A stretch of 41,402 nt of DNA. Source: Thermotogota bacterium. Its GTDB lineage: Bacteria; Bipolaricaulota; Bipolaricaulia; UBA7950; UBA9294. The stretch lies in NCBI GenBank assembly GCA_039679545.1, contig JBDKUT010000062.1, positions 1 through 41,402 on the forward strand, read 5' to 3'. The position numbers and the translations under genes are program-made. This document shows, piece by piece, positions 25,443-41,402 of the stretch. A model generated the notes under the pieces. That model saw only the letters and a list, made by a program, of their open reading frames with translations, made no database searches and was not told the origin of the DNA. Numbering within the stretch: the first letter of the stretch is position 1; each line of letters starts with the position of its first letter.

Positions 25443-26511
25443 TGCTTCCTCCTGATGGTCGAGGTTTCGGATGACCGACCCCGGTCGTTCCCTGCAGAGA
25501 GTTCTCCGTAGCCGCCTGCCACACCCGCTCCGTTTCGATCGACCCGGGAGCCGATCGAGCCAGAAGCAGCTTGGCTCCGCCGTTCTGCGTCGTTGCGCAA
25601 CCTCGGTGACTGAAAGCCGGGAGGTGGTAGCAGTCGCCGGATCTGAGGGCGTAGTCCTCTTCTCCGATTGTCAGTTGAATGCGCCCCTCAAGGACGAATC
25701 CGAACTCCTCCCCTTCATACGCTCCCGGCTCCTGTGAAAAGCCAGATGGGATCTCCGCCACGAGCACTTCCAGCGAGCCCGCGGGGAGCGCGCCGCTCAA
25801 GAAGCGGTACGTAACCGTGTTGTCTGAAAGCTTCACGTGATCCGCGCCGTCGTCGCTTCCCAAGAGGGGAACCCGCTTTTCCTGGGCTCCCGGAAGGTCC
25901 GGAAGTTCGGCGCCCAGAAGCGCGATCGCCTTGGCATACCGCGCCGTCTGCACCCACAGTACCTTCGCCCCGGACTCGGCCGCCGCACACCGGTGGGACG
26001 TCGCCGCAAGCAGGTGGTAGCTGTCCCCGATGCCCAGGTGGTGCTCCTCCTCACCTATCGTCAGGTCGATGGTCCCGTCGAGGATGTAGCCGAACTCTTC
26101 CCCCTCGTGGACGTGCGACTCGTGGGAACTCCCTTGCGCCATCTCGCCAATCAGCACTTCGAAGCGACGCCCGGGGAACTCGGCGCTGAGGAATCGGTAC
26201 TTGATCGACGTGTCCGACAAGCTGACGTACGAGCGGTTGTCTCCCTTCGTGATCGCCGAGGGACGCGGATCGGCGAGGAACGCCTTCCCGGGACCGTTCG
26301 ACATCACGAGCATGTCGGCCAACGCAACATCCAACGCTTCGCAGATAGCGCGGAGGGAAGGAATGGAGAACGACGACAACCCTCGCTCGATCTGGGAAAG
26401 GAAGCCGACCGAAAGACCGCATTGTTCCGAGAGCGAGCGCAGGGTCAACCCGCGTTGACGCCGTAGGTATCTGAGTTTGCGGCCAACCTCCTGGAGGCGT
26501 TCAGTCTCCAT
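25435..26511 (-). CDS. XRE-family HTH regulator with two tandem cupin domains
   Basis: HTH TLRSLSEQCGLSVGFLSQIERG, then two repeats of YRFLS...EGEEFG.(I/V)L.G...LTIGEE...GD.YHL. Confidence 0.88.
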   Translation of the reverse strand: METERLQEVGRKLRYLRRQRGLTLRSLSEQCGLSVGFLSQIERGLSSFSIPSLRAICEALDVALADMLVMSNGPGKAFLADPRPSAITKGDNRSYVSLSDTSIKYRFLSAEFPGRRFEVLIGEMAQGSSHESHVHEGEEFGYILDGTIDLTIGEEEHHLGIGDSYHLLAATSHRCAAAESGAKVLWVQTARYAKAIALLGAELPDLPGAQEKRVPLLGSDDGADHVKLSDNTVTYRFLSGALPAGSLEVLVAEIPSGFSQEPGAYEGEEFGFVLEGRIQLTIGEEDYALRSGDCYHLPAFSHRGCATTQNGGAKLLLARSAPGSIETERVWQAATENSLQGTTGVGHPKPRPSGGSNV

Positions 26512-26517
26512 GAAGCC

Positions 26518-26546
26518 ATTCTAGACAGAGTGTGAACGCCAGTCAA
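26518..26546 (-). promoter_or_regulatory. Sigma70-type promoter of the regulator/hydantoinase/Opp operon (leaderless)
   Basis: Minus strand TTGACT (26541-26546), 17-bp spacer, TAGAAT (26518-26523), 6 nt before the ATG at 26511. Confidence 0.7.
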
Positions 26547-26551
26547 GCGGT

Positions 26552-26568
26552 AGTGAACATCGTTCACT
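26552..26568. promoter_or_regulatory. Palindromic operator AGTGAAC-ATC-GTTCACT
   Basis: Perfect 7-3-7 inverted repeat just upstream of the -35. A related GTGAAC half-site lies at 26532-26537 in the spacer. Confidence 0.6.
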
Positions 26569-26658
26569 GAAAGTGATCCGCGTCACGACAAGCTCCACCT
26601 TCCCCTGACGACACCATAGTTCGGGACTGAGAAGAATTGGGGGACGGCGGCTCGGTAC

Positions 26659-27276
26659 CTACTCGGCCGCGTCAAGCGGCTTCCCGGTGTCCAGGCGCGC
26701 GGCCTCAACGTATCCGGTGCCGATCGGCGAACCGACGCGGTAGTAGCGGTTGTCAAGAGCGTAGAGGATCGGATCGAGGGCGCGGACGTCGGGGAGATTG
26801 GGCTCTGCGGCCCCTTCGGAAACGGCTCTCTCGGGGATGAGTTTCTCGGAGAGATGAGCCTCAAGGACCTCAGCGACGAAGAAGTGGCGGTGCTGGATCG
26901 TCCCGTCGTGCAGCACGCGGCACTCGAGGTTCACAGGGCAATCGTCGATGAGCGGCACGGGAAGGACGTCGCCGAGCTTCCAGGCGACAAGCTTCGACTT
27001 GTCTACGTCTCGACCCGAGACCGTTCCGAAGTAGTCGACGAGGGAAAGTTGGGTCGTCGTGGGAACGTTGATGCTGAATTCGTGGTGGTCGCGCAGCCCG
27101 CGCGTCGTGAAGTGACCCTCCCCGAGCGAGACCGCAACAAGAGCCGGACGGACCCCCATGATCGCGCAGTCGCCGATCGTAGCGAAGTTCGCTCGCCCGT
27201 CGACCATCGCGCCAACCAGAACAATGGGTACGGGGTACAGACATTGCACCGGGCCGAGGCGCTTCTTGTTCGTCAC
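26659..27276 (-). CDS. Flavin reductase-like / flavoredoxin family protein
   Basis: [42 protein letters not shown] and FVAEV, typical of FMN-binding split-barrel proteins. Confidence 0.85.
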
Positions 27277-27461
27277 GATTGATCACCAAAGGCCGGGCGT
27301 CCCGGCTCTCGTCAGAAGCCTATCCACCAGGGCGTCTCGCTTGCGTCCCCTGGTCGGCGAGTGGAGCCTACGCTAGACTCTCGTTTCACGCGTGCGTGGG
27401 CACGCAGATCCCTTTCCCTCGAGGAGGTTCCGGAGATGGGGCAGTAGGGCGGAACAAGGAT

Positions 27462-29159
27462 ATGGAGAACACGACGACTGACTTCGTCCGCGAGATTGTG
27501 CGAGAGGACCTGCGCCTGGGAAAGAACAACCGCAAGGTCCAAACCCGGTGGCCGCCGGAGCCGAACGGGTACATCCACGTCGGCCACGCGAAGGGGTTTC
27601 TCCTCGCGTACGGGATCGCCCAGGAGTTCGGCGGCACGTTCAACCTTCGTTTCGATGACACCAACCCCGCGAAAGAGGAGCAGGAGTTTGTGGACGGGAT
27701 CATCGAGGACATGCGGTGGCTTGGCGTTAAGTGGCAGAACGTCTTCTTCGCCTCCGACTACTTCGGCCAGCTGTACGAGTGGGCGGAGCTCCTAGTTCAA
27801 GCGGGGAAGGCCTACGTCTGCGATCTCTCGCCCGAAGAGGTGAGCGCCTATCGCGGCACGGCCATCGAGAAGGACGGGCAAATCATCACGCCTCCAGGAA
27901 AGGACAGCCCCTACCGCAACCGCTCCCGGGAGGAGAACCTCGACTTGTTCCGTCGGATGCGGGCGGGCGAATTCCCCGACGGAGCCAGGACGCTGCGCGC
28001 GAAGATCGACATGGCCCATCCGAACTTGAATATGCGCGATCCCGTCATGTACCGGATCCTGCGCGCGACGCACCACCGCCAGGGCGACGCCTGGTGCATC
28101 TACCCGACCTACGACTGGGCTCACGGCCAGTCAGATGCCATCGAAGGCGTCACGCATTCCACGTGCGACCTCGGGTTTGAGAACCATCGTCCTCTGTACG
28201 ACTGGTTCCTCGACCAACTCCCGATTCGCACGCGCCCGCGGCAGATCGAGTACGGTCGACTCAACCTGAGCCACACCGTGATGAGCAAGCGGTGGCTGCG
28301 GCAGTTGGTCGAGGGCGGGCACGTCAACGGCTGGGACGACCCGCGGCTGCCGACCCTCCGAGGCATGCGTCGCCGCGGCTACACGCCGGAAGGGATCCGG
28401 GCTTTCGTCCGTGCGACGGGGGTCACGAAATCCCAGGGGATCGTCGACGCCGCCCTCCTCGAGCACTTCCAGAGGCAAGACCTGAACACCACGTCACCGC
28501 GCGTCATGGCCGTCTTGGACCCAGTGCGTCTTGTGGTCACGAACTACCCTGAAGGGCAAGTCGAGTGGCTGGAGGCAGTGAACAACCCCGAGAACCCCGC
28601 GGCGGGGACGCGGAAGGTTCCATTCTCTCGTGATCTCTTCATCGAACGTGAGGACTTCCTCGAGAACCCGCCGAGCAAGTTCTTCCGGCTTGCCCCCGGG
28701 CGCGAGGTTCGGCTGCGCTACGCCTACTTCGTCCGTTGCGAGGAGGTCGTAAAAGACAAGCGCGGCGAGGTCGTGGAGATCCGGTGCACGTACGATCCCT
28801 CGACACGAGGCGGCGACGCCCCGGACGGGAGGAAGGTGAAAGCGACGCTGCATTGGGTCTCGGCGACGCACGCCGTCGACCTCGAGGCTCGCCTCTACGA
28901 CCATCTCTTCTCCGCCGAGGACCCGACGGGCGTCGCGGGGGACACGTCCTGGCTCGACAACCTGAACCCGAACTCGCTTGTGGTCTGCCGCGGCAAGGGC
29001 GAGCCGAGCTTGCGGAACGCAAAACCCTCCGACCGCTTCCAGTTCGAGCGGAAGGGGTACTTCTGCGCTGACCCCGATTCGTCGGAGAGCAGGCTCGTGT
29101 TCAACCGAACCGTGGGGCTTCGCGACACGTGGGCGAAGGCCCAGGGCACGCCGGAGTAG
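27462..29159 (+). CDS. glnS: Glutamine--tRNA ligase
   Basis: [15 protein letters not shown] (HIGH), [42 protein letters not shown] and FQFER. RBS AAGGA before ATG 27462. Confidence 0.95.
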
Positions 29160-29184
29160 GCTGACACTCCCGACCTTGGAATGA

Positions 29185-29212
29185 GCGGGCGCTCGCCTCG
29201 GTGGGCGCCCGC
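29185..29212 (+). terminator. GC-rich stem-loop downstream of glnS
   Basis: GCGGGCGCTCGC-ctcg-GTGGGCGCCCGC (12 bp including G-U pairs), with a weak U-tract. Confidence 0.45.
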
Positions 29213-29281
29213 GTGCTCGTTGTTGCACCGACTCGCCGACCTCGTGTAGGATCTCCTCCCGAAGACCTTGAGGGGGTTCGG

Positions 29282-30052
29282 GTGAAGCGAGACTCGGCGA
29301 AGACGTCGGCAACGGCCCATGACGGGCCGTTTTTTTCTACCTCGAGCGGACGCTTGGACTCGCGGACCGTCGCCGGAGGGTACGCGCGGATCGCCGTGAG
29401 CGTCGATCCCGCCCTGGCTACACCCCGTCCTGGGCAATTCGTGCTCCTGCGCCTGCGAGAGGGACCGGCGCTTCCGCGCGCCTTCTCCGTTCTGACGGCC
29501 GAGGCAGGGTGCCTTGAGTTCTTCTTGAAGCTGGACGGAGCTCTGCGCGAGGCCTTGGGGCGAGCGGCGATCGGAACGGAGGTCGTCGTGCGAGGACCGT
29601 ACGGCACCCCGTACGAAAGCCGCATCGGCCGCGAGTGTCGCTACGTTCTCGTCGGGGGAGGGAGCGGGATCGCTCCGCTCCTTCACTTCGCGGCCGTGCA
29701 TCCAGAACTGGTAGAGGCGGTCGCGTTCGGGGTTCGGGGCCGAGGCGTGCGCGACCTCCTGCCGGGGATCGACCTTGCGGTCGAAGAGGAGAACGGCGAG
29801 ATGGCCGCCGAGCGCCTTCGAGAACGCTGGAACCGGGGCCTCGGGATCCTTGCGTGCGGTCCCGAACCGATGCTTCGAGACATCGCGCGGCAGTATGCGG
29901 GGGAGCCGAACACGTACGTCTCGCTGGAGACGAGGATTGGATGCGGATTCGGCGCCTGCCAGGGGTGCAGCATCGAGACACGCTCCGGGATGCAACGTGT
30001 CTGCCGTGACGGCCCCCTGTTTGCCTGTTCGGAGGTCTCGTGGCTGCCTTGA
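29282..30052 (+). CDS. pyrK: Dihydroorotate dehydrogenase electron transfer subunit
   Basis: PGQF, RAFS, GPYG, VGGGSGIAPL, ACGPEPM and CGFGACQGC...VCRDGP ([2Fe-2S]). GTG 29282 follows SD GAGGGGG; start is uncertain. Confidence 0.88.
   Translation: MKRDSAKTSATAHDGPFFSTSSGRLDSRTVAGGYARIAVSVDPALATPRPGQFVLLRLREGPALPRAFSVLTAEAGCLEFFLKLDGALREALGRAAIGTEVVVRGPYGTPYESRIGRECRYVLVGGGSGIAPLLHFAAVHPELVEAVAFGVRGRGVRDLLPGIDLAVEEENGEMAAERLRERWNRGLGILACGPEPMLRDIARQYAGEPNTYVSLETRIGCGFGACQGCSIETRSGMQRVCRDGPLFACSEVSWLP
29311..29336 (+). terminator. Intrinsic-terminator-like hairpin with T7 tract at the 5' end of the pyr operon (putative attenuator)
   Basis: AACGGCCC-atgac-GGGCCGTT followed by further T's, 7 T in total. 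Lies downstream of candidate promoter TTGCAC(29223)-18-TAGGAT(29247). Confidence 0.55.
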
Positions 30053-30963
30053 CGGTTCGTGCCTTGGGACTCGAGTTTCGAAACCCCGTGGTCCTCGCAT
30101 CGGGGCCGGCGGGGTTCGGTCTGGAACTCGCGGAGTCGTTCGACCTGGCCAAGGTCGGCGCGCTCACCACAAAGACGGTGACCCTCGAGCCTCGCGCGGG
30201 AAACCCGCAGCCGCGACTCGTGGACGCGCCGTGTGGCGTTCTCAATTCCATCGGACTGCAGAATCCCGGATGTGACGCGTTCCATGCGGAGCTTCTCCCG
30301 AAGATCCGCGCCTTCCCAACGAAGCGCATCGTCAGCATCGCCGGGCGAAGCCCGGAGGAGCTCGGATCTCTGGCGGCTTGCCTCTCGGAAGAGCCCGGGG
30401 TCGACGCCCTCGAGGTGAACCTGTCTTGTCCGAACGTGCGGGGCGAGACGGTGGCCGACGATCCCCAGAGCGTGCGGTCGTTCGTCAGCAGCGCTCGGTC
30501 CGCGGCAGCTGGTCCCCTTCTCGTGAAACTCCCCGGCGAAGGGAACTACCTCGACCTCGTGGACGCGGCCCTCTCCGCGGGTGCCGACGGCGTCGCGCTG
30601 ATCAACGCCCTTCGCGGAATGAGGATTCACACCGAGACAGGCCTCCCGCTGCTGGACCGCCAGGTGGGTGGGCTTTGCGGTCCAGCGATCTTCCCGATCG
30701 CCCTTCACCGGGTGTTCGAGGCACGGAAGGCGTTTCCGGAGGCCGTGATCGTCGGAACGGGCGGCATCTCCGATCTGCGCAGCGCTCTCGAGATGCTCTG
30801 CGCTGGAGCGGACCTCGTCGGCCTTGGGTTCGCCGTGATGGCTGACCCGGACGCCGTCTTCCGCCTGGAGCGGGAGCTGGACGAATGGCTGACGGCCCGC
30901 GAAATCTCGAATGTCAAGGAACTGCGCGGCACAGCGCACCGAGGGGGAATCCATGTTCGTTGA
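30040..30963 (+). CDS. pyrD: Dihydroorotate dehydrogenase family 1B catalytic subunit
   Basis: NPVVLASG, TTKTVT, GNPQPR, NSIGLQNPG, EVNLSCPN and GTGGI. Confidence 0.93.
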   Translation: MAALTVRALGLEFRNPVVLASGPAGFGLELAESFDLAKVGALTTKTVTLEPRAGNPQPRLVDAPCGVLNSIGLQNPGCDAFHAELLPKIRAFPTKRIVSIAGRSPEELGSLAACLSEEPGVDALEVNLSCPNVRGETVADDPQSVRSFVSSARSAAAGPLLVKLPGEGNYLDLVDAALSAGADGVALINALRGMRIHTETGLPLLDRQVGGLCGPAIFPIALHRVFEARKAFPEAVIVGTGGISDLRSALEMLCAGADLVGLGFAVMADPDAVFRLERELDEWLTAREISNVKELRGTAHRGGIHVR

Positions 30964-31732
30964 CCAGCTGAAGAGGGCCGAGAGGGAGACCCAGGGAAGG
31001 CTTTGCGTCGGCCTTGACCCTCATCCCGCGATCGTCCCGGGCGGGGGCTCGAAGGCTCGCGCCGTGGGGCGATTCCTCGACGCGGTGATCTTGCAGACGA
31101 AGGACGACGCTTCTGTCTACAAACCGAACAGCGCGTTCTTCGAAGCGCTGGGATCGGACGGCGTCGCTCTTCTCCGGCGAACAGTCGATCGGATCCACGA
31201 TGCCGGGCGTCTTGCGATCCTCGACGCCAAGAGGGGCGACATCGCCTCGACGGCGGCGGCCTACGCTCGTGCGGCCCACGACGTGCTGGCGGCGGACGCG
31301 ATCACCGTCGTCCCGTACATGGGGGAGGACGCCATCGTCCCGTTTCTCGACAGCGGGCTTGCGGTCTTCGTCGTCGCTCTTCCCTCGAACACGGCCGCGG
31401 CACTCATCGTCGATCACGGCTCGCCTCCGCTGTACGTCCGCGTGGCTGAGCTGGCGGCTCGCCTCGCGGAGCGATTTCCCGGGCAGGTAGGGTTGGTCGT
31501 GGGCGCGACGAGTCCCTCCAAGGCGCGTTCGCTGCGCGACATCGGCCCAGCTCTGCCGTGGCTCGTGCCAGGAATCGGGGCGCAGGGCGGGGAGCTTGAG
31601 GCGTTCCTCGACGCCGCCGGCGGCGACCGCACGCTCGTCTTCAACGTGTCCCGCGGCATCCTCGCGGCAGAGCACCCGCGCGATGCCGCCCGAACCTACA
31701 GAGAAGCGATGGGGAGGACCCATGACCGATGA
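30953..31732 (+). CDS. pyrF: Orotidine-5'-phosphate decarboxylase
   Basis: LCVGLDP, YKPNSAFFE, ILDAKRGDIAST, GLVVGAT, LVPGIGAQGG and NVSRGI. Confidence 0.94.
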   Translation: MFVDQLKRAERETQGRLCVGLDPHPAIVPGGGSKARAVGRFLDAVILQTKDDASVYKPNSAFFEALGSDGVALLRRTVDRIHDAGRLAILDAKRGDIASTAAAYARAAHDVLAADAITVVPYMGEDAIVPFLDSGLAVFVVALPSNTAAALIVDHGSPPLYVRVAELAARLAERFPGQVGLVVGATSPSKARSLRDIGPALPWLVPGIGAQGGELEAFLDAAGGDRTLVFNVSRGILAAEHPRDAARTYREAMGRTHDR

Positions 31733-32324
31733 GAAGCGATGGCTCGATCTGTTGCAGGCGACGGGAGCGGTCCAGTCCGGTGACTTCCTTCTCTCCTCGG
31801 GACGGCACTCCGGCCGCTACGTCCAGTGCGCCAAGGTGTTGGAGAATCCCGCGAACGCCGAGACCCTCGGAGCCGCCCTCGCGGCGAGCCTGCCGAAGGA
31901 AATTGACCGCGTGGCGTCGCCTCCGCTGGGAGGTATCCTGATTGGGTACGAGGTGGCGCGCGCCCTGGGCCGTCCGTTCCTCTTCCCGGAGCGCGGGCCG
32001 GACGGCAGGTTCCAGCTTCGCCGCGGATTCACCCTGCGTGCCGGAGAACGGATCTGCATCGTCGAAGACGTCGTAACAACCGGGCGGACCACGCGCGAGC
32101 TGATCGACCTCGTCCGGGGGTTCGGCGCCGAGCCGGTCTGCTCGGCGGCCATCGTCGACCGATCCGAGACCCACGCGGTGGAAGGGATGCCGATTCACGC
32201 GCTCGTTCACCTGAGCATTCCCACCTATACGTACTCGGAGTGTCCGCTGTGCGCCTTGGGAACCCCGCTCTACCAGCCCGGAAGCCGCAAGGACCCGACG
32301 AAAAGGGGGCCGAATGAGGGTTGA
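31722..32324 (+). CDS. pyrE: Orotate phosphoribosyltransferase
   Basis: GDFLLSSGRHS..YVQC, PRPP motif IVEDVVTTGRT and C-terminal CPLC...PGSR. Confidence 0.93.
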   Translation: MTDEKRWLDLLQATGAVQSGDFLLSSGRHSGRYVQCAKVLENPANAETLGAALAASLPKEIDRVASPPLGGILIGYEVARALGRPFLFPERGPDGRFQLRRGFTLRAGERICIVEDVVTTGRTTRELIDLVRGFGAEPVCSAAIVDRSETHAVEGMPIHALVHLSIPTYTYSECPLCALGTPLYQPGSRKDPTKRGPNEG

Positions 32325-32847
32325 CATCCTCGAGGAGCACGGGTACGAGTCCGCCTTGCTCGGGCTGTCGCTCTCCTACCGACAGGACCTGGAGCGAATG
32401 CCCGCCGTGGCTCAGCGCCTGCGCTTCCTCGGGGGCGGGCACAACAAGTTCCTGGAGTCCATCGTCGTGTGGCTCGACATGACGGCGCCGCGGTACTTCT
32501 GGCAGCAGTTCGACACGTACCGAGTCGGCGTGACCAAGCAGAGCGAGTCCACCATGCACACACTGGCGTCGCGGCCGCTCTCTCAGGATGACTTCGCCCA
32601 CCCCGTCCCCGCCGACTACCTCGACCACCTGAACGGACTCATCGCGGCGAACGATTGGGAGGAAGCGAAAGCAGGAGTGCCGGAGTCGCTCCTGCAGCGA
32701 CGCGTCGTGTGTCTAAACTACATGGTTCTTCAGCGGATGACCCGGCAGCGAAAGACGCACCGCCTGCCAGAATGGCACCTGTTTGTGGCGCGGGTGCTGG
32801 AAGGGGTCCAGCACCCGGAGTTGCTCGAAGATGAGGGAGGATCGTGA
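32314..32847 (+). CDS. ThyX-like (flavin-dependent thymidylate synthase fold) protein with non-canonical motif
   Basis: GH.KFLE, APRYFWQQFDTYR...SESTMH, PES..Q.R....NY..L....R..HRL.EW align with the ThyX architecture, but RHRx7SxR is replaced. Coupled to pyrE and dcd. Confidence 0.72.
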   Translation: MRVDILEEHGYESALLGLSLSYRQDLERMPAVAQRLRFLGGGHNKFLESIVVWLDMTAPRYFWQQFDTYRVGVTKQSESTMHTLASRPLSQDDFAHPVPADYLDHLNGLIAANDWEEAKAGVPESLLQRRVVCLNYMVLQRMTRQRKTHRLPEWHLFVARVLEGVQHPELLEDEGGS

Positions 32848-33407
32848 TGGGGTACGGAGTGCTTTCGGATCGCGAGATCGCGGCGCTGTGTGCGGGAGAG
32901 GCACCCATGTTGTCTCCGTTCGTCGCGCGCCAGGAAGGGAAGCCGTCGTACGGACTCGGGAGTTACGGGTACGACCTTCGCCTCGGGCGGCGGCTCCTCG
33001 TGCCGCTCGGCGGGCTGAACGTTGTGCTCGACCCGGTCATGTTCCCTGTGAACCACTTTCGCGCCGTGGAGGTCGACAAGACGTTCGAGCTGGCGCCAAA
33101 TGCCCAAGTTCTGGCGGAGTCCGTCGAGTGGTTCCGCATGCCGGACGACGTCTGCGGGGTGTGCTGGGGCAAGAGCTCGTACGCTCGCTGCGGCCTCCTG
33201 GTCAACGTGACGCCTCTCGAACCCGGGTGGCGAGGCATCCTGACCATCGAACTCGCGAACGTGTCTCCGCTCCCGATTCGTCTGCACATCGGTCAGGGAA
33301 TCGCCCAGGTCGTCTTCTTTCGCGGCGAGCGCCCCAATCGGACGTACGGAGAAAAGGAAGCAGGCGGCGGGTATCAGGATCAGCCTGGCGTCACGCTTCC
33401 GCGGTAG
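32847..33407 (+). CDS. dcd: dCTP deaminase
   Basis: VLSDREI, SYGLGSYGYDLRL, GKSSYARCG, PLEPGWRGILTIEL, GIAQ and YQDQPGVTLPR. Confidence 0.94.
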   Translation: MGYGVLSDREIAALCAGEAPMLSPFVARQEGKPSYGLGSYGYDLRLGRRLLVPLGGLNVVLDPVMFPVNHFRAVEVDKTFELAPNAQVLAESVEWFRMPDDVCGVCWGKSSYARCGLLVNVTPLEPGWRGILTIELANVSPLPIRLHIGQGIAQVVFFRGERPNRTYGEKEAGGGYQDQPGVTLPR

Positions 33408-33521
33408 CCCCGATGAACTCGACGCCCGCCGCGGTCGATGGTGTATCCTTTCGGTCTGTCGCTCGGCCGCAAGGGTCGCCCGGCGACCGGTGCTCGGGGT
33501 CGAGGTGCCGAAGGGGGAACG

Positions 33522-34514
33522 ATGAACTGCACGATAAGAACCTTCTGGTTCGCACTGATCGTGATCGTGACGGGCGCGTCGCTTGGGAGCGTTGCGACTC
33601 CCGTTTCGTCACGGTACGTCGACGTTGACGTTGAGGTGTTTCGGTCTTGGGGGCTGCTGGGGCTCGGCACGTGGGAGCCGCTCGGCGCGCGCTTCCTGTC
33701 CATGGACATCGCTCGCCTCGAGGCGTCCGACCAAGCCCAGCTTCAGGAGATCGTCGGTGGGTGCCAGAGCGGAACGTGGAGCGAACTCGGTTCGTGCTCA
33801 GCGCTCGCGACCGTCCAGTACATGTTCGAGCGGCATTACGCGGTCGAGCCGGTGCTCGGATCGCTCTATCGGGTCACCCTTACGAACCGAACCACGGGCC
33901 TGCTCGGTGTCGTGCTGGCGATCGACGGTCTGAACACGAACGGCAGCGGCGAAGTCGCCGGGACCGCCAAGGACAAGAAGTGGATTCTCCTGCCGAAGCA
34001 GACCGTGCGGATCACGGGGTGGCAGGTGAGCTCGGACGAAGCGCTGCAGTTCCGGTTTGCCACACCGAGTCAGGCCCACTCCTCGCTCGACGCGCTGCGT
34101 GGCTCGATCCGCGTGTACGTCTACCTCCCGGATCCCCGCGGCGACGCGGCCAAGGGAACCGGGGCCGGAGCGGTGATCGACCAACCTACAGTCCTGATCC
34201 CGTTTACGTCCGCAACGTTCCTGCCGATCGACGCAGTTGCCCTGACCTACGCTCGCACGTCGGTGTCGCTCGGCATTCTGTGTGAAGAAACGGGTGGAAC
34301 GGGAATTCGGATCAGCTCGGTCGTCGCCGGGACCATCGCCGAGTTGCGCGGCCTGCGCATCGGAGACGTGATTACGTACGCGAACGGCGTTCCCATCAAC
34401 ACGTGCGCCGACCTCGCGGCGTACCTTGCCACGCGGCGCGCCGGCGACCGGGTTGTTCTTAAGGTCCACCGCGCCGACGCCGTCCTCCTCATCACCCTGG
34501 AGCTGGAAGAATAG
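33522..34514 (+). CDS. Secreted protein with C-terminal PDZ domain
   Basis: N-terminal hydrophobic signal and C-terminal GIRISSVVAGTIAELRGLRIGDVITYANG...GDRVVLKVHR (PDZ). RBS AAGGGGG. Confidence 0.78.
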   Translation: MNCTIRTFWFALIVIVTGASLGSVATPVSSRYVDVDVEVFRSWGLLGLGTWEPLGARFLSMDIARLEASDQAQLQEIVGGCQSGTWSELGSCSALATVQYMFERHYAVEPVLGSLYRVTLTNRTTGLLGVVLAIDGLNTNGSGEVAGTAKDKKWILLPKQTVRITGWQVSSDEALQFRFATPSQAHSSLDALRGSIRVYVYLPDPRGDAAKGTGAGAVIDQPTVLIPFTSATFLPIDAVALTYARTSVSLGILCEETGGTGIRISSVVAGTIAELRGLRIGDVITYANGVPINTCADLAAYLATRRAGDRVVLKVHRADAVLLITLELEE

Positions 34515-37500
34515 CCGGAGTCGCCGGGTCGGCCGGCACAGGGCGGAGGCTATCGCCGACGGCAGGCAGGTCGCCCCGCACGACTCGGCACGCCGCCGTG
34601 TCTCCGCCCACCAACTCGACCACTTCGAGTTCGCAGGGGCCTGCGGAAGACTCCAATCGATCGCCCATGCGGAGCCCGTTCCCCTCTCCCAGGGACACGA
34701 GGACGGCCCCCGTCGTGGCGTCAATCGAGAGGACGCGCCCCGCGGGGCCGACAGCAACGTGGGACGTGGCGCTTCCGGCAATTCCGCGTGCATCGGTGAC
34801 GCGGAGTTCAATAACGTACTCCCCTTCTACCGCGTACGTGTGGATCGGTGACGGATTCGTCGACGTGGTCCCGTCGCCGAATGACCAGGCGTACGAGGCG
34901 GGGGTTCGGGAAACCCGCGTCTGATCGGCAAACCGCACCGAGACCCCGGCGTACGGAAGGTCAGGGCCGTAGGTGAAGGCAACGACCGGAGGCCGATCGG
35001 CGGTTGCGAGAAGGACTCGCACTTCGCCCTCTCCCGCCAGTTGTGGCTCTTGCACGGCTCCGCGCTCCCGACGGACCCGCTCCGGAACGGCTCGGGCCAC
35101 ATACTCGTACAGCTCCCATGCCGTCACCCGAAGATCTCCGTTGAGATCCGCTGCGCCGCGCAACCCCTCGATCACACAGTAGGTAAACACACCGTGCCCC
35201 AGTTCGGGCGACTCAAACGCCTCTTGGGCCTCCGCGGCCGCGGAGAGGACAAGCCTCCCCTCAAGGGCAAAGTCCGAGAAAAGATCAGGTCGATCTCCAA
35301 TCGGACGCTTCGACGAGGGAAGGCTGCGTGAGAGTCCGCCGGAGTAGCAGCCATCGAACAGAACCAGGACGTGATTCGATTCGAGCCGGTCGAGAAAGCG
35401 CCCGAATTCGTCGTCGCGGAGTGCCGTGTCCTCGACCGCCGCGGCCGACGTATCCACGAGGACGAAGAACTCGTCGACGCCGTCCTTCTCGTCGCCGTTG
35501 TCGTCGTCGCCCTGGAATCCGTGCCCCGAGAACGACACCAGGGCGAGGTCGTCCTCCCCCGCCACGCGTCGCAGCCACCCGAGCGCCTCTCGCACGTTGA
35601 CCAAGGACGCAAGGTGTGGTGTCACGCCCGGGAGTTCCGCAACGGCGACCTCGGAGTCGAGGAGGAGGCGGATGTGGTCTTCGGCGACCCCGGAGTCGAG
35701 AAGCCAACGGCACATGGCGATGGCATCCTCTCTCCCGTACTGCAGGTCCTTCACCTGGGCGTAGTCTGAGATTCCAATGACGAGGGCCCAGACCTCATCC
35801 ACCGGGACAATCTCAGGCGTGGGCGAGACCACGATGGACTTCGACTCCGTCGCCTCGAGACCGTCCGAGTCTCTCACCGTCAGCTTCACCGTGTACTGCC
35901 CCTCCGCCGGGAAGCGGTGGACCGGTGAGGCGTCGCGCGAACTCCGGCCGTCACCGAAGTCCCACGTCCACGCGACGACGCTTCCGTCCGTATCGACGGA
36001 GCGGTCGGAGAAGTAGACCGGATCCTGGATCGCCGGCGTCGGGGGCGTGAAGGAGAACGCTGCGCGCGGGGGTTCGGCCTGGTCGATCAAGACGACGCGC
36101 ATGACCGCGTCCGCCCGCGACGTGTCGTCAACCACTCGCAGGGTGATCGGGTGCGGCCCCGCCCCGAGCGGCGGTGCGACGAGGGTCGGATCGCCCGAGA
36201 CAACGTCGATCACGCCGTCGGACTCGAAGTCCCAACTGTACTCGACGACGAATCCGTCGGAGTCGCTCGACTCCGACGCATCGAGCAGGACGCGATCCCC
36301 GGCCCGCGGGCCCCTCGGAAGGCGCACGCCGCCCTCCGACACGGCCACGGCCACGAACGTGGCGACCGGTGACGTGTCCGCGGGCCAGACCACGACCGGG
36401 AGCGTGAGCGAGGCGGCGGCGCCGCGGTCGTCGGACACGGTCAGCACGACACTGTAGGCCCCCGCAGACGTGTACGCATGATCGACGGAATCGCCTTCGG
36501 CGACCGTACCGTCGCCAAAATCCCACCACAGCTCGCGGATTTCGCCGTCCGGGTCGAACGAGTCGGCGGCACGGAACTGGACCGGCGTGCCCGCTTCGGG
36601 GTCCGCGGGAAGCGCAGAAAACGCGGGAATCGGCGGCTCGTTGGGCGACCGACGCAGCCATGCCGTCGGATCGAACGCAATCCCCGTCGCGACGCGGGGG
36701 CCGTCGTCCACCGAGAGCGCAAGCTCGCCGGACAGCGTCACGGGGCCGAGACTGGCCGCGGCGGAGACTGACCCCTCCGAGAGGCTCGAGCCCACGAAGC
36801 GGGCCTTCCCGGCCACGGAGAACCCCCGGTCCGCGAGAGCAAGGCGCACTCGCCACGCCTCTTCTCCAATCTCAACGAGCCCCGTCCAATCCCACCCATC
36901 GCCCGCCCACCGCGCCGACGCCGCGAGGATCCGATCGGGCAGAAGCTGCACCCGCTCCTCGAGGCTGAGACGCCGAGCACCGACGCCCACTCCCTGGAGT
37001 ACAGCGACGTCCAGGGTCGTCAGCGTCACGTCGACGGCCGCCAAGGATGTCTCAAGCCCCCACGAGGCGAGCGTGAAGTCCAGTTTGAGCCGCGACGCCA
37101 GGTGCGGCGAAGGCCAGTTCGTGGCCAAGCGGAGGGACGCTTCCACGGGCCCGCCGCCGAGGGCCGCCAGCCCCCACACGGCTCCCCAAGACTCGCCGCT
37201 CTCCAAGACCCCCGCAAATCCGCACTGCATCGTCAGCGCTTCGCCGTCACCGCCCTGACGCCAGACGCTCTGGACACTCCCGCTCGCCGCCACCCTACGG
37301 TGGAGACTTCCGAGCACGGTTGACTCGATGTCGAGGGCGACGCCACCACCGCTGTAGCGGAGGCCGAGGTCGAGCGAGTCGATCTCGGCGGGGGATCCGG
37401 AGAGGTGGAGATCCGCATGCCAGGTCTCGCCAAACCATCCTCGCGACGCCGAGGACACGAGTTCGACCGCCCACGAGGAGGTCGTCGACGGATCCTCGTG

Positions 37501-38817
37501 CGCACCGATCGTCGTCCACCCGAGTCCCGCTTCAATGCACGGCGAATCGAACCGAAGGGACACGTCGCCCGACGGAAGGTCCGCGAACTCAGGCGCCGCG
37601 GCGACGTCCGACGGCCGCCGCGTGGTTCCCTCATAGTCCGTCCCGTTCCCCCAGACGCAGTTGTGCGAGAAGGTCCGAACGCTCGATGCGTTGCCGGAGT
37701 CGCTCACCCTCAGACCAACCTCGCGGTTGTACGCCAGGATGCAGTGCTCGACCTGCGCGTCGCCGCCGGAGATCCGTACTCCGTCCCCGGCGTTCCGCGC
37801 CACTGTCGAATACGTGAGTTCGCACCGCGCCGTTGTCTCGAAGACCACGCCGTCGCCGCCTCCCCCCACAATCTCGCACGCTCGCGCCAAGATCGATGCC
37901 CCGCCCGCCGCGTGAAGGGAGATCCTGTCCACGGCGCTGAACCGTCCGCCCTCGATCGTGCACGTAGCCCCATCCTCGCACGAGACGGCGGCGGCGCCTC
38001 CTTCGACGTGGAGGCGAGCGAACGCTCCGGTCGCGCTGCTCATCAGGCGGACGGCATATCTCGCGTTGTCGGTGAGGGCCAGATCGCTGGCGACGATCCT
38101 CGCGGCGGCGTCGACGAGGATCCCATCCGTGGAGTGCCCGACGATCTCGCACCCGCCGAGAGAGGCGGTCGCGTTCGACTCGAGGACGAGCCCGCCCCCC
38201 GCGTTGTCCTCGAATCGCGAGCCGGTCGCCTCGAGTCGGGCATCATCTTCCACCAGGACACCGGCCGCTTCGTTTTCCTGGATCGTACAGCTGTCGAGGG
38301 TGACGCTTGCCCCGTCGTGAACCCAGATTCCGGCACCCGCGTTGTCTTCGATCGTCACCGAGTCGAACGTCAGGTCGGAGGTCACCTCCCCGACGTCAAC
38401 GCCGGGACCCACGGCGCCCGAGATCACGCAGTCGACGAGAGCCGCCGACCCTGCCGTGACCGCGACGGTCGAGCCCTCGAGGATGGACGCGGCACGCTCG
38501 ATCGTCATTCCCTCGATTCGCCCCGAACTTACGTGATCGACGACCAGCACGGGGTCGAACCCGTACGCGTAGCGAACGACCGTCTGTTGAGGCCCGGCGC
38601 CCACGACCGCCACGCCGTCCTTGAGCGCCACTTGTTCCTCGTAGACCCCGCCAGCCACCCGGATGACATCGCCGAAGGCCGCCGCGTCCATCGCGCCCCG
38701 AATCGTTTGGTAGTCGGCCGACCCATCCGGGGAGACAAGAAGTTCGGTGGCCGTCGCCAGAAGCGAACCTGTCAGCAGGAACACGGCGCAAGCACTAACT
38801 CGGAGCACGGCTCTCAT
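34492..38817 (-). CDS. Large secreted multidomain protein: right-handed beta-helix + beta-strand-rich region + 3 PKD + caspase-like (C14) peptidase + PKD
   Basis: Signal peptide MRAVLRVSACAVFLL, DYQTIRGAMDAA..GD beta-helix start with repeated N..G motifs, W.WDFGDG PKD repeats, ALVIGISDY...SFSGHG...LFDGCYSG His-Cys dyad, and HGVFTY. 1441 aa from ATG 38817. Confidence 0.85.
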   Translation of the reverse strand: MRAVLRVSACAVFLLTGSLLATATELLVSPDGSADYQTIRGAMDAAAFGDVIRVAGGVYEEQVALKDGVAVVGAGPQQTVVRYAYGFDPVLVVDHVSSGRIEGMTIERAASILEGSTVAVTAGSAALVDCVISGAVGPGVDVGEVTSDLTFDSVTIEDNAGAGIWVHDGASVTLDSCTIQENEAAGVLVEDDARLEATGSRFEDNAGGGLVLESNATASLGGCEIVGHSTDGILVDAAARIVASDLALTDNARYAVRLMSSATGAFARLHVEGGAAAVSCEDGATCTIEGGRFSAVDRISLHAAGGASILARACEIVGGGGDGVVFETTARCELTYSTVARNAGDGVRISGGDAQVEHCILAYNREVGLRVSDSGNASSVRTFSHNCVWGNGTDYEGTTRRPSDVAAAPEFADLPSGDVSLRFDSPCIEAGLGWTTIGAHEDPSTTSSWAVELVSSASRGWFGETWHADLHLSGSPAEIDSLDLGLRYSGGGVALDIESTVLGSLHRRVAASGSVQSVWRQGGDGEALTMQCGFAGVLESGESWGAVWGLAALGGGPVEASLRLATNWPSPHLASRLKLDFTLASWGLETSLAAVDVTLTTLDVAVLQGVGVGARRLSLEERVQLLPDRILAASARWAGDGWDWTGLVEIGEEAWRVRLALADRGFSVAGKARFVGSSLSEGSVSAAASLGPVTLSGELALSVDDGPRVATGIAFDPTAWLRRSPNEPPIPAFSALPADPEAGTPVQFRAADSFDPDGEIRELWWDFGDGTVAEGDSVDHAYTSAGAYSVVLTVSDDRGAAASLTLPVVVWPADTSPVATFVAVAVSEGGVRLPRGPRAGDRVLLDASESSDSDGFVVEYSWDFESDGVIDVVSGDPTLVAPPLGAGPHPITLRVVDDTSRADAVMRVVLIDQAEPPRAAFSFTPPTPAIQDPVYFSDRSVDTDGSVVAWTWDFGDGRSSRDASPVHRFPAEGQYTVKLTVRDSDGLEATESKSIVVSPTPEIVPVDEVWALVIGISDYAQVKDLQYGREDAIAMCRWLLDSGVAEDHIRLLLDSEVAVAELPGVTPHLASLVNVREALGWLRRVAGEDDLALVSFSGHGFQGDDDNGDEKDGVDEFFVLVDTSAAAVEDTALRDDEFGRFLDRLESNHVLVLFDGCYSGGLSRSLPSSKRPIGDRPDLFSDFALEGRLVLSAAAEAQEAFESPELGHGVFTYCVIEGLRGAADLNGDLRVTAWELYEYVARAVPERVRRERGAVQEPQLAGEGEVRVLLATADRPPVVAFTYGPDLPYAGVSVRFADQTRVSRTPASYAWSFGDGTTSTNPSPIHTYAVEGEYVIELRVTDARGIAGSATSHVAVGPAGRVLSIDATTGAVLVSLGEGNGLRMGDRLESSAGPCELEVVELVGGDTAACRVVRGDLPAVGDSLRPVPADPATPAILPAPG

Positions 38818-38925
38818 GCCGGGATTGTATAGGTCGACGAAACGTCCACAAAGCGAGCGGCGCTCTCCGAAGTCCGTCACGCAGAACTGGTATGATAGGG
38901 CGGAGCCCGGAGCCAAAGGGGGATC

Positions 38926-39489
38926 ATGAGAGTGTTCTTCTCTCTGCCCGTTGACGGGGCGCTTCGCATGCAGATCGGCCGCGTGGCGGAGCGGCTCCGC
39001 CGCGAGACGACGATGCCGGCCTCGTGGGTCCGCCCCGACAACTACCACGTCACGCTGCGCTTTCTCGGAGAGATCGACCCGGAGCTCACCATCCCCCTCG
39101 AGAAAGCCGCACAAGGGGCCGCTCGAAAAGTCGCTCCGTTCGCACTCCGCGTCGACACGCTCGGCGCGTTTCCGTCGATCGACCGCGCGAGGGTTCTCTG
39201 GGTTGGCGCGATGGCAGATCCGGCGTTTGGGAGCCTCGTCGGGGCTCTCGAAGAGCGGCTTGACGAGCTCGGATTCGCCCCCGAGCGCTCCGAGGCCCTT
39301 GCCCACGTCACGATGGCGCGAATCAAGGGACACCCCGACGCCCGCCTTCCTCGCGTTTTCGAAGCGATTGGCCCCTTCCCGCCGCACGTGCTCCGCATCG
39401 ACCGTCTCGTTCTCATGGAAAGCCGGCTCTCCCCGCACGGACCGACATACGCCCCGCTCTTCTCAGTACCGCTCGGCCCGGAGGAATAA
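38926..39489 (+). CDS. thpR: RNA 2',3'-cyclic phosphodiesterase (2H phosphoesterase, LigT-like)
   Basis: MRVFFSL, two HxT motifs (HVTLRFLG, HVTMAR), ARVLWVG and ESRLSPHGPTY. Confidence 0.92.
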   Translation: MRVFFSLPVDGALRMQIGRVAERLRRETTMPASWVRPDNYHVTLRFLGEIDPELTIPLEKAAQGAARKVAPFALRVDTLGAFPSIDRARVLWVGAMADPAFGSLVGALEERLDELGFAPERSEALAHVTMARIKGHPDARLPRVFEAIGPFPPHVLRIDRLVLMESRLSPHGPTYAPLFSVPLGPEE

Positions 39490-39499
39490 GGGAGCACCG

Positions 39500-39922
39500 A
39501 TGCCCTTCATCTACCTTGACCACACCGCCGACCTGGCCATTCGGGCGTGGGGATCCAGCATCGGCGAGGCGTTCGCCCAAGCGGCGCTCGCCATGTTCTC
39601 GAAAATGATCCGAACGGACCGAGTCCGCCCGGCGATCGTGCGCGATTACACGTTCCAGGCCGGCACGCTCCGGGATCTGCTCGTCGCGTGGTTGGCGGCG
39701 CTCCTCGCGCCGAAGGATGTTGAGAACTTGGTTTTCTCCCACTTCGACGTCGACGTGCGCGCGACGGAGGCCGGATTCGAACTCTCCGGCCGAGCGCTCG
39801 GTGAGCCACTCAACGCCGAGCGACATGAGCCAAGCGGCGAGGTGAAGGGGATCACCTACCTCGGCCTCGACGTCCGCGAGGACGCCGGAGTGTGGTACGC
39901 TGAGTTCGTCGCCGACGTCTGA
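39500..39922 (+). CDS. Archease (RtcB activator)
   Basis: YLDHTAD N-terminus, EVKGITY and terminal DV. RBS AAGGGAG. Confidence 0.92.
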   Translation: MPFIYLDHTADLAIRAWGSSIGEAFAQAALAMFSKMIRTDRVRPAIVRDYTFQAGTLRDLLVAWLAALLAPKDVENLVFSHFDVDVRATEAGFELSGRALGEPLNAERHEPSGEVKGITYLGLDVREDAGVWYAEFVADV

Positions 39923-39958
39923 GAGGCACGTCGACAGCGTCGCGATAGGGAGAGACCG

Positions 39959-41402
39959 GTGAGCATCTTCGACCACATGGAGCGGGCGGGCGACGTCGAA
40001 TGGATCTTGGCCCCGCACGACGGGATGCTCGTTGCCGGGCGGATCTACGCTGACGCCGCAAGCATCGAGCAGCTCCGCCGCGAGGCCGACGCTCCGAAGG
40101 GCTGGAGTGCCATCCGCCAACTGAAGAACGTGGCGAGCCTCCCCGGGATCGTCGCACCGGCCCTCGCGCTCCCTGACGTTCACCCCGGCTACGGCTTCCC
40201 GATCGGCGGGGTCGGTGCCTTCGACTTGGATGACGGAGTTGTCGTCGTCGGAGGCGTCGGGTTTGACATCAACTGCGGGGTCCGCCTGCTGCGCACTCCT
40301 CTCCATCGAGATGACGTCGCGCCCATCATCGATGAGATCGCGACGGACCTGTACCACGCGGTCCCTGCGGGGCTTGGATCGAAGGGGGCCCTTCGCCTCT
40401 CCATGAAGGAGATCGATCGCGTACTCCGGGAGGGCGCTCCGTACGTCGTCCGGCTCGGGAACGGCATTGAGGGCGACCTCGAATACACCGAGGAGAAGGG
40501 GCACGCGGACGGCGCGGAGCCGGATACCGTAAGCGCCCTCGCGAAGCAGCGACAGTTCCAGCAGGTAGGCACTCTCGGCTCGGGGAACCACTACCTCGAG
40601 GTGCAGACGGTCGACGAGATCCTCGAACCGAAGGCGGCGCGGGCGTTCGGGGTGACCGCCGGCCAGGTGGTCGTCTCCATTCATACTGGCTCGCGCGCGC
40701 TCGGGCACCAGATCGGCCAGGACTACTTGAAGGAGATGACGTCGGCTTCGACCAGGTACGGAATCCGAATCCCCGACCAAGAGATGGTGTGTGCTCCGGT
40801 CCGAAGCCCCGAGGGGCAGCGATACCTCGCGGCGGCGGCCTGCGGTGCAAACTGCGCGTTCGCCAACCGCCAGGCGATCACGCACCTGGTGAGAACCTCG
40901 CTCGCGCACAGCTGTGGGATCGGCCTGGAGACGATCCAGACGGTCTACGACATCGGCCACAACCACGTCCGAATCGAAGAGCACGAGGTCGGCGGCGTCC
41001 TGCGCCGCTTGCTCGTCCACCGAAAGGGGTCGACGCGCGCATTCGGTCCAGGACGCGGCGACGTCCCGCCCGCCTACCGTGAGGTCGGCCACCCCACTCT
41101 CGTCGGCGGGACGATGGGGACGTCGTCGTACGTCATGCACGGGACGTCGGCCGGCATGGACCTCGCTTTCGGCAGCGGGATTCACGGAGCGGGGCGTGCG
41201 CTGTCGCGCAACCAGGCGATCAAGCGATTCCGCCGCGACGGGATCCTGTCCGACCTCACGGCGAAGGGAATTCGCCTCTTGGCGCACGACAAGCGCGGCA
41301 TCGCCGAGGAGGCGCCGGGAGCCTACAAGGACGTCGACAGCGTCGTGCGAGCTGCCGAGACGGCCGGAATCAACGTCTCCGTCGCGCGGCTGCGGCCGCT
41401 GG
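39959..41402 (+). CDS. rtcB: RNA-splicing/repair ligase RtcB (3'-truncated by window edge; absent from ORF track because it has no stop)
   Basis: Read from sequence: GTG 39959, then LPDVHPGYGFPIGGV, GFDINCGVR, GTLGSGNHYLEVQ, IHTGSR..GHQ, HRKG, HGAGR and EEAPGAYKDV. Frame is open to the end. Confidence 0.95.
   Translation, partial: MSIFDHMERAGDVEWILAPHDGMLVAGRIYADAASIEQLRREADAPKGWSAIRQLKNVASLPGIVAPALALPDVHPGYGFPIGGVGAFDLDDGVVVVGGVGFDINCGVRLLRTPLHRDDVAPIIDEIATDLYHAVPAGLGSKGALRLSMKEIDRVLREGAPYVVRLGNGIEGDLEYTEEKGHADGAEPDTVSALAKQRQFQQVGTLGSGNHYLEVQTVDEILEPKAARAFGVTAGQVVVSIHTGSRALGHQIGQDYLKEMTSASTRYGIRIPDQEMVCAPVRSPEGQRYLAAAACGANCAFANRQAITHLVRTSLAHSCGIGLETIQTVYDIGHNHVRIEEHEVGGVLRRLLVHRKGSTRAFGPGRGDVPPAYREVGHPTLVGGTMGTSSYVMHGTSAGMDLAFGSGIHGAGRALSRNQAIKRFRRDGILSDLTAKGIRLLAHDKRGIAEEAPGAYKDVDSVVRAAETAGINVSVARLRPL

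Follow-up and report, generated by a model that had tools for sequence, protein, structure and literature searches.

A ThyX-like gene between pyrE and dcd in Bipolaricaulota: a probable thymidylate synthase of a mostly phage-borne subfamily

Flavin-dependent thymidylate synthase (ThyX or FDTS; PF02511), represented by the structures from Helicobacter pylori (3AH5, 3N3Y), Thermotoga maritima (TM0449; 1O26, 5CHP) and Mycobacterium tuberculosis (2AF6), is one of the closest described systems to the gene considered here. This ThyX-like gene encodes 177 amino acids between pyrE and dcd (32314..32847, + strand) in a 41,402-nucleotide stretch (contig JBDKUT010000062.1, positions 1 to 41,402, assembly GCA_039679545.1) of a Thermotogota bacterium that GTDB places in Bipolaricaulota; this whole stretch is the window, and all positions refer to it. 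In all solved ThyX structures, the RHR motif binds flavin adenine dinucleotide (FAD) (PMC6514825). In the mechanism proposed for T. maritima ThyX, R174 activates deoxyuridine monophosphate (dUMP), and S88 together with Y91, acidified by R90, expels the carbinolamine hydroxyl; S88A, R90A and Y91A cause large rate losses (PMC8316439). H53, S30 and a bond between H53 and Y91 are described in PMC11940539.

PolB (4P5A), a uridine monophosphate (UMP)/dUMP methylase of polyoxin biosynthesis, has the same fold and is a precedent for changed specificity (PMC5954106). In sequence PolB itself remains close to canonical ThyX (E 2e-37 with a canonical query), and it is an additional ThyX copy within an antibiotic cluster, whereas our gene is present once and is flanked by pyr genes, dcd, glnS and the gene for a PDZ protein. 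The other thymidylate synthase, ThyA (PF00303), has an unrelated fold and no similarity to our protein, although an archaeal-type copy takes the same position upstream of dcd in two relatives. PHROG 6721 and the ThyX clusters of the ESM Atlas belong to the same family as our protein (the DTYR..S-E-S-T-M-H subfamily); their labels are automatic and unvalidated and their members mostly viral, whereas the gene described here is fixed in a bacterial pyr operon. No published description or assay of this protein family was found in the literature searched, most subscription papers lying outside the search. We propose that the gene probably belongs to a ThyX subfamily, carried mostly by phages, that took over from thyX and produces thymidine monophosphate (dTMP).

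Predicted fold and active-site residues

The family alignment, A1, consists of 144 rows and was used to build an AlphaFold (AF2) model of the ThyX-like protein, with a predicted local distance difference test score (pLDDT) of 96.4. The best Foldseek match of this model is H. pylori ThyX 3n3y (E 3e-10, template modelling (TM) score 0.81), and ThyX is found in all 32 rows listed, so that the ThyX-like layout claimed in a preliminary description of the window stands as a predicted fold. In an unbiased VIA-align comparison with 48,161 chains, only five have Z of 5 or more, all with the ThyX/PolB fold (16.5, 14.0, 13.5, 13.2 and 12.9), and the next chain has 4.7. The best of them aligns 174 residues at a root-mean-square deviation of 2.1 Å, and the predicted fold is the same along the whole chain. 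The ThyA profile PF00303 has no match in the protein, and the high-Z matches are all ThyX-fold chains. In BFVD the top two matches are uncharacterised phage proteins, followed by ThyX entries; the matching ESM Atlas clusters (scores 0.97-0.98) are automatically named 'FAD-dependent thymidylate synthase family protein' or 'putative ThyX', and 83-90% of the Atlas members with a taxon are viral.

Unlike the fold, the sequence diverges from ThyX, with 13-19% identity and about 40 residues fewer. The protein scores 14.7 bits (E 0.027) against Pfam PF02511 (Thy1), below the gathering score of 24.8; some orthologues lie narrowly over it (25-29 bits), and 66 of the 144 members of the protein family match at E<=0.01. 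NCBIfam yields no family match, including none to a thyX model, phmmer against PDB returns noise only, and the family profile ranks H. pylori ThyX first but at E 0.14. An hhalign comparison with ThyX is weak (probability 2.8%, E 0.016), and PHROG 6721, of 'unknown function', matches at E 2e-30. On the model, the protein is predicted to belong to the ThyX structural family, though not as a plain member: it lacks the RHR motif and the R90-Y91 pair and falls below the Pfam threshold.

Conservation figures come from A1 without the query and 12 of its close homologues, which leaves 131 diverse rows. Residues of our protein are given with their T. maritima counterparts unless stated otherwise, and from G42 to R70 the alignment is gap-free with an offset of 10. 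The segment GHNKFLE (residues 42-48; 32437..32457, +), the counterpart of G52-H53...E58 by gap-free offset to the 1kq4 sequence, contains H43 (H53; His in 85% and Glu in 15% of the protein family), predicted to be the folate/flavin-stacking His, K45 at the T55 position (Lys 92%) and E48 (E58). It is followed by the altered motif T-Y-R-x8-S-T-M-H in QQFDTYRVGVTKQSESTMH (residues 64-82; 32503..32559, +); on direct reading, both this motif and the 177-residue open reading frame (ORF) are as the preliminary description gave them. Here, still without gaps, Q64 stands at R74, Q65 at Q75, T68 (Thr 84%) at R78, Y69 (Tyr 98%) at H79 and R70 (R/K 90%) at R80, and the RHR motif (RHRx7S) is absent. A looser motif, R/T-H-R-x7-8-S, is said to have been given by Liu and Yang in 2004; it is absent as well, because it requires His where the family has Tyr.

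After R70 there is a one-residue insertion, and in the preferred register S77 then stands at E86, S79 at S88, M81 (86%) at R90 and H82 (92%) at Y91, with S77 and S79 both invariant (100%). E86 has a role in sugar binding. Neither this register nor the alternative one, based on S77, yields the Arg-Tyr of R90-Y91. In ThyX terms, RHRx7SxRY has become TYRx8STMH. The changes R78->T, H79->Y and R90->M had been recognised before; Y91->H, E86->S and the retention of most other catalytic residues had been missed.

In the second half of the protein, K119 (Lys 81%) stands at R147, where H. pylori ThyX also has Lys, and the alignment is gap-free on to R146. The segment NYMVLQRMTRQRKTHRLPEW (residues 135-154; 32716..32775, +), the counterpart of N163...R174...W181, holds N135 (N163; 79%), H149 (98%) and the invariant R146 (100%; R174, or M. 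tuberculosis R199), which by its alignment would be the uracil-activating Arg. R130 is also conserved (98%). R60 (79%), eight residues before the first motif position, stands at the position of M. tuberculosis R87 and H. pylori R66, which contact dUMP (PMC6514825), and therefore covers the loss of R74. By alignment, counterparts of S30, H53, E58, Q75, R80, R147 (as Lys), N163, R174 and M. tuberculosis R87 are kept, as is that of S88 in the preferred register, while roughly half of the usual active-site residues are changed. Of the five dUMP contacts described in PMC6514825 (M. tuberculosis numbering), R87, S105 (in the preferred register) and R199 are kept and R95 and R107 lost. Residues newly conserved in the family are K45, W63, D67, Y69, S77, T80, Q128, R130 and Q145.

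Longer homologues point to the same site. An intein-like insert (Cys...Asn; LAGLIDADG in 9) lies directly before S79 in 12 of 28 such homologues, making S79 the intein +1 residue, and one other feature among the 28 is a fusion to deoxycytidine monophosphate (dCMP) deaminase (P0132). Inteins occupy conserved active-site positions, including in phage ThyX (PMC5050341). We rejected the idea that this is the ThyX intein site for the four Bipolaricaulota ThyX inteins observed, which follow RHRIA/RHRIS and lie some five residues further towards the N-terminus of the same loop. An intein directly after RHRIA/RHRIS is found in canonical ThyX of bacterial family f4 (L037, L038, L039, L113).

Alternation beside dcd in Bipolaricaulota

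The ATG of the ThyX-like gene lies 11 nt inside the end of pyrE (orotate phosphoribosyltransferase; 31722..32324, +; TIGR01367, 192 bits; stop TGA 32322-32324). Its own TGA (32845-32847) overlaps the start (GTG 32844 or ATG 32847) of dcd (deoxycytidine triphosphate deaminase; 32847..33407, +; TIGR02274, 134 bits) in a TGATG junction, with GAGGGAGGA just 5' of the dcd start. These overlaps were described earlier and are confirmed, and the operon context is stronger than was then claimed, since the ThyX-like gene, ThyX and ThyA alternate beside the same dcd. Of the two flanking genes, dcd is the more conserved partner: it adjoins in 16/17 loci, against 14/17 with pyrE directly upstream, and it is retained where the pyr genes are not adjacent (L008, L017, L244).

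At 41 dcd loci of the bacterial family to which the window's genome belongs, the adjacent gene is the ThyX-like gene in 24, ThyX in 10, archaeal-type ThyA in 2 (upstream of dcd in G015 and G131, genus g2), none of these in 4 and a contig end in 1; no locus has two of the three genes adjacent. In the sister family f3, canonical thyX is directly upstream of dcd in 3/3 loci examined (L026, L028, L029), where dcd is 73-75% identical; ThyX thus shares this gene slot. A sample of 151 genomes of the phylum contains the ThyX-like gene in 17, all from one bacterial family, and gives 87 matches to PF02511 (8 of them the ThyX-like gene itself) and 7 to PF00303. In 74 genomes of that bacterial family, the ThyX-like gene is found in 26, canonical ThyX in 12 and ThyA in 2, and the carriers are without ThyX in 25/26 and without ThyA in 26/26. 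The distribution is complementary, with the exceptions of G160 and, outside the family, G210, G175 and G180.

The gene is kept across at least nine genera. In one genome (G087), pyrKDFE is present and the ThyX-like gene and dcd are both absent, and in four genomes with none of the three genes (G040, G122, G038, G116; 87-94% complete) glnS is joined to dcd and the pyrK-pyrD-pyrF-pyrE-X block, where X denotes the ThyX-like gene, is lost. Those four genomes have no pyrE match anywhere and no detectable thymidylate synthase. The ThyX-like gene behaves like the thymidylate synthase of the locus, dispensable where salvage suffices. The four loci (L102, L103, L104, L105) belong to two genera and are likely to come from pyrimidine auxotrophs; in G038, dcd has diverged further (61%). 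The ThyX-like gene occurs without dcd in two genomes of genus g15.

The genome to which the window belongs (G000; 93.55% complete, 163 contigs) has the ThyX-like gene in single copy. The preliminary description called for a search for thyA and canonical thyX in this genome, and neither was found there: canonical ThyX gave nothing, including by six-frame hmmsearch --max (best E 0.24), and ThyA nothing, including by tblastn with five ThyA queries. Dihydrofolate reductase (DHFR; folA) was likewise not found in it, which is also a feature of ThyX genomes. Thymidine kinase, thymidylate kinase (Tmk), serine hydroxymethyltransferase (SHMT) and an NrdD-like gene are present. The suggestion that the gene is the only dTMP source does not hold, given this thymidine kinase and Tmk and the four relatives without the pyrKDFE-X block; with thymidine kinase present, it is at most the sole de novo source.

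The ORF is not a chance ORF, as it has many homologues (2337 at 90% clustering; 2242 clusters at 50%), a low ratio of nonsynonymous to synonymous substitution (dN/dS, 0.08-0.22 against five congeners), which indicates purifying selection, and a host-like G+C content at third codon positions (GC3, 0.84, like its neighbours). The nearest named homologues (77-92% identity) are from Ca. Bipolaricaulis and Bipolaricaulota, and the host is related to Ca. Bipolaricaulis. A recent island was considered and rejected, because GC and GC3 match the neighbours and synteny spans genera.

Some further ThyX forms were observed. A divergent Thy1-like protein of 313 aa (L116:796-1734, G153:C667; 25.1 bits) is unmatched by the family profile. 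In genera g4, g6 and g8 (L045, L098, L042), ThyX with an N-terminal insertion matches only Pfam positions 59-190 and is encoded downstream of dcd. Tandem ThyX forms are also seen, as ORFs of 450-700 aa in which Thy1 matches weakly once or twice (G021, G037, G055, G062, G108 and G149 of family f5; G218-G230).

Viral copies, proposed function and alternatives

That similar proteins are mostly unannotated phage proteins, as stated in the preliminary description, is borne out by PHROG, phage records and the Atlas. Of 50,697 phage records, 27 match, and wherever a copy is annotated it is called 'hypothetical'. The 23 phage records named after a bacterial genus all bear names of anaerobes (Desulfovibrio, Clostridium and relatives, Enterocloster, Fusobacterium), and 17 plasmid matches likewise come from anaerobes. 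The copy of phage ProddE (gp14, 43% identity) lies near nrdD/nrdG. Neighbours were counted within the available flanks of 82 viral loci, of which 64 are distinct at 90%. Genes for dUTPase, Dcd or dCMP deaminase occur at 21 of these loci, ribonucleotide reductase (RNR) at 23, and either at 34/64 distinct loci; RNR and dUMP-supply genes reach densities of 7.0 and 5.3 per 100 kb in the nearest 2 kb, falling to 0 at a distance of 8-10 kb. Since phage nucleotide genes cluster in general, this neighbourhood shows a module, not a reaction.

In a FastTree tree rooted at the midpoint, without a proper outgroup, the chromosomal copies form one clade (40/145 rows, support 0.80) inside viral sequences, which suggests a phage origin of the chromosomal copies; phages have been argued to drive thy exchange (PMC2826268). 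Other copies are found in two metagenome contigs (L242, L244) with the order nusG-rplK-(dcd)-X-gatB and in 2/296 Fibrobacterota genomes (G502, G210). G502 has no Thy1 match (ThyA was not searched there), and 18/20 Fibrobacterota without the ThyX-like gene have one.

In our proposal, the gene would have been captured from a phage and would then have displaced the ancestral thyX beside dcd. The protein, which is quite likely to work like ThyX, would be the de novo thymidylate synthase of the bacterium and would methylate dUMP supplied by the adjacent Dcd, with thymidine salvage in parallel. A homotetramer would bind FAD, and the reduced flavin would take the methylene group from methylenetetrahydrofolate (CH2-THF), as in ThyX chemistry (PMC8316439); SHMT is present and DHFR would not be needed. 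H43 would stack the folate or flavin, R146 (R174) would activate the uracil, and R60, Q65 and K119 would hold the dUMP phosphate. K45, D67, Y69, S77 and R130 may stand in for the lost contacts of R78, H79 and E86. S79 (S88) and H82 would aid the exit of the carbinolamine hydroxyl, with H82 acting as the acid instead of Y91. Since the pKa of a His does not have to be lowered by an adjacent Arg, this would account for R90-Y91 having changed together to M-H.

Dcd (VTPLEPGW type, 32847-33407) may be bifunctional, or an unrecognised enzyme may remove dUTP: dUTPase was not found in the window's genome, and in the phylum sample the trimeric form is found in only 2/151 genomes and the dimeric form in 0/5 tried, though dcd is common. 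We rejected the idea, prompted by the missing dUTPase, that the enzyme methylates dUTP, as canonical-ThyX genomes also lack dUTPase and phage copies adjoin dUTPases.

A number of observations weigh against this proposal. In the active site, RHR is reduced to T-Y-R, the R90 and Y91 positions are both altered, and position 137 (R165) is Lys in only 54% of the family and Met in our protein. The S79=S88 register comes from the weak hhalign alignment and the intein site, with the invariant S77 as an alternative. The dN/dS of the gene is higher than those of pyrE (0.05-0.10) and dcd (0.03-0.05) in the same comparison. None of the three genes is found in 35/74 genomes of the bacterial family (ThyA was not searched in 9 of these), so that absence of thyA and thyX is common there even without the ThyX-like gene. 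The Fisher p of 0.015 overstates the exclusion, as related genomes are not independent. The sole overlap within the family is G160 (7% contamination), which has both the ThyX-like gene and ThyX; its copy lies on a phage-like contig beside a second dcd, which is 49% identical. Outside the family, the Fibrobacterota metagenome-assembled genome G210 has both the gene and a Thy1 match (E 2e-30), and 2 of 40 longer records chosen from the 82 viral loci (G175, G180) carry canonical ThyX as well; in G180 it is canonical ThyX that adjoins nrdD/nrdG. The copies in genus g15 and Fibrobacterota have no nucleotide-gene neighbours. Finally, thymidine kinase is found in all four genomes that lost the block and in 66/74 of the bacterial family.

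Some of these points would fit an enzyme that acts on dUMP without giving dTMP, or that stops half-way (e.g. at 5-hydroxymethyl-dUMP), serving phage base modification and carried along in bacteria living by salvage: R165 and the RHR motif that binds FAD have changed, most Atlas members with an assigned taxon are viral, thymidine kinase could meet dTMP needs, and a few viruses hold both genes. We consider this improbable, because the gene, ThyX and ThyA alternate next to one and the same chromosomal dcd, because the gene has persisted in so many genera, and because in phages it most often adjoins genes for RNR, dUTPase and Dcd rather than for base-modifying enzymes. Furthermore, two of the 40 viral records (G187, G179) have separate, weak and divergent ThyA-fold genes, of a kind that usually hydroxymethylates (for these two a putative function). 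Note that the G187 record, which also carries the ThyX-like gene, has a dCMP deaminase, the weak ThyA-fold gene and an unannotated gene beside a polymerase containing uracil-DNA glycosylase (L284:1041-3016), possibly a modified-base pathway. A ThyX-derived protein without methylating activity, for example an oxidoreductase for flavin/NAD(P)H or a partner of Dcd that binds nucleotides, would account for the loss of R78, H79, R90 and Y91, the dispensability in four relatives, the stand-alone copies in g15 and Fibrobacterota and the coexistence with ThyX in G210. It is a poor candidate, however, since neither the uracil-activating Arg nor the putative active-site Ser varies, inteins target that Ser, and association with three unrelated dUMP-producing enzymes (Dcd, dUTPase and dCMP deaminase) points to a shared metabolite rather than to one partner.

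The PolB precedent raises the question of a UMP (ribo)methylase that uses UMP from the adjacent PyrE/PyrF. The position of pyrE directly upstream, the change of E86 to Ser and the presence of PolB (4p5a, Z 13.2) among the fold matches agree with it, and a ThyX paralogue that methylates UMP is described in PMC5954106. It is nevertheless very improbable: dcd is the more constant neighbour and stays where pyr genes are not adjacent, phage copies have deoxynucleotide enzymes as neighbours, the locus is not close to any nucleoside-antibiotic cluster, and PolB accompanies a normal ThyX as a second copy, in contrast to the ThyX-like gene, which is the sole copy. An unlikely variant of our own proposal is a third mechanistic type, namely a minimal ThyX-fold thymidylate synthase of anaerobes and phages that has lost both the FAD clamp formed by RHR/R165 and the Arg-Tyr acid, binds flavin in a different way or uses another cofactor, employs a His as acid and possibly a reductant other than NADPH, and has become the housekeeping enzyme of an entire bacterial clade.

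If the ThyX-like protein makes dTMP, the ThyX hallmarks R78, H79, R90 and Y91 are replaceable, and the family would be a natural test of the flavin-carbinolamine mechanism with an Arg-activated Tyr91 as acid. It would also provide an annotation for >2,000 clusters now called hypothetical, fill the missing thymidylate step in Bipolaricaulota and in some Candidate Phyla Radiation and Fibrobacterota genomes scored empty by thyA/thyX searches, and show cleanly how a gene of likely phage origin can take over a housekeeping slot. New from this locus are the alternation of three genes beside dcd in the bacterial family, the pattern of joint loss, the position of the inteins and the fusion.

Other features of the window

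The gene order is glnS, pyrK-like, pyrD, pyrF, pyrE, the ThyX-like gene, dcd and the PDZ protein gene, all on the + strand. The pyr block begins with the pyrK-like gene (dihydroorotate dehydrogenase electron-transfer subunit; 29201..30052, +; PF10418 at E 1e-11; NF000798 at E 4e-29, below its cut-off). It is followed by pyrD (dihydroorotate dehydrogenase; 30040..30963, +; NF005574, 288 bits, over its cut-off) and pyrF (orotidine monophosphate decarboxylase; 30953..31732, +; TIGR02127, 208 bits). No sigma-70-like promoter was found at the locus, terminator-like sites are at chance level (5 against 4.3 expected), Rfam at gathering score has no match in 26000-35000, and PADLOC has none among three proteins tried.

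Downstream of dcd, 33522-34514 encodes a protein predicted to be secreted or membrane-bound, which ends in a PDZ domain and has no annotation in its N-terminal part; its gene is kept 3' of dcd in most loci of the bacterial family, even without the pyr block. On the opposite strand, a 1648-aa ORF (34492-39438, -), judged from its sequence alone, resembles a surface protein built of several domains, with PKD-like repeats and a caspase-like domain. Consecutive ORFs in 38926-41402, recognised by eye, are like 2'-5' RNA ligase/phosphodiesterase, archease and RtcB.

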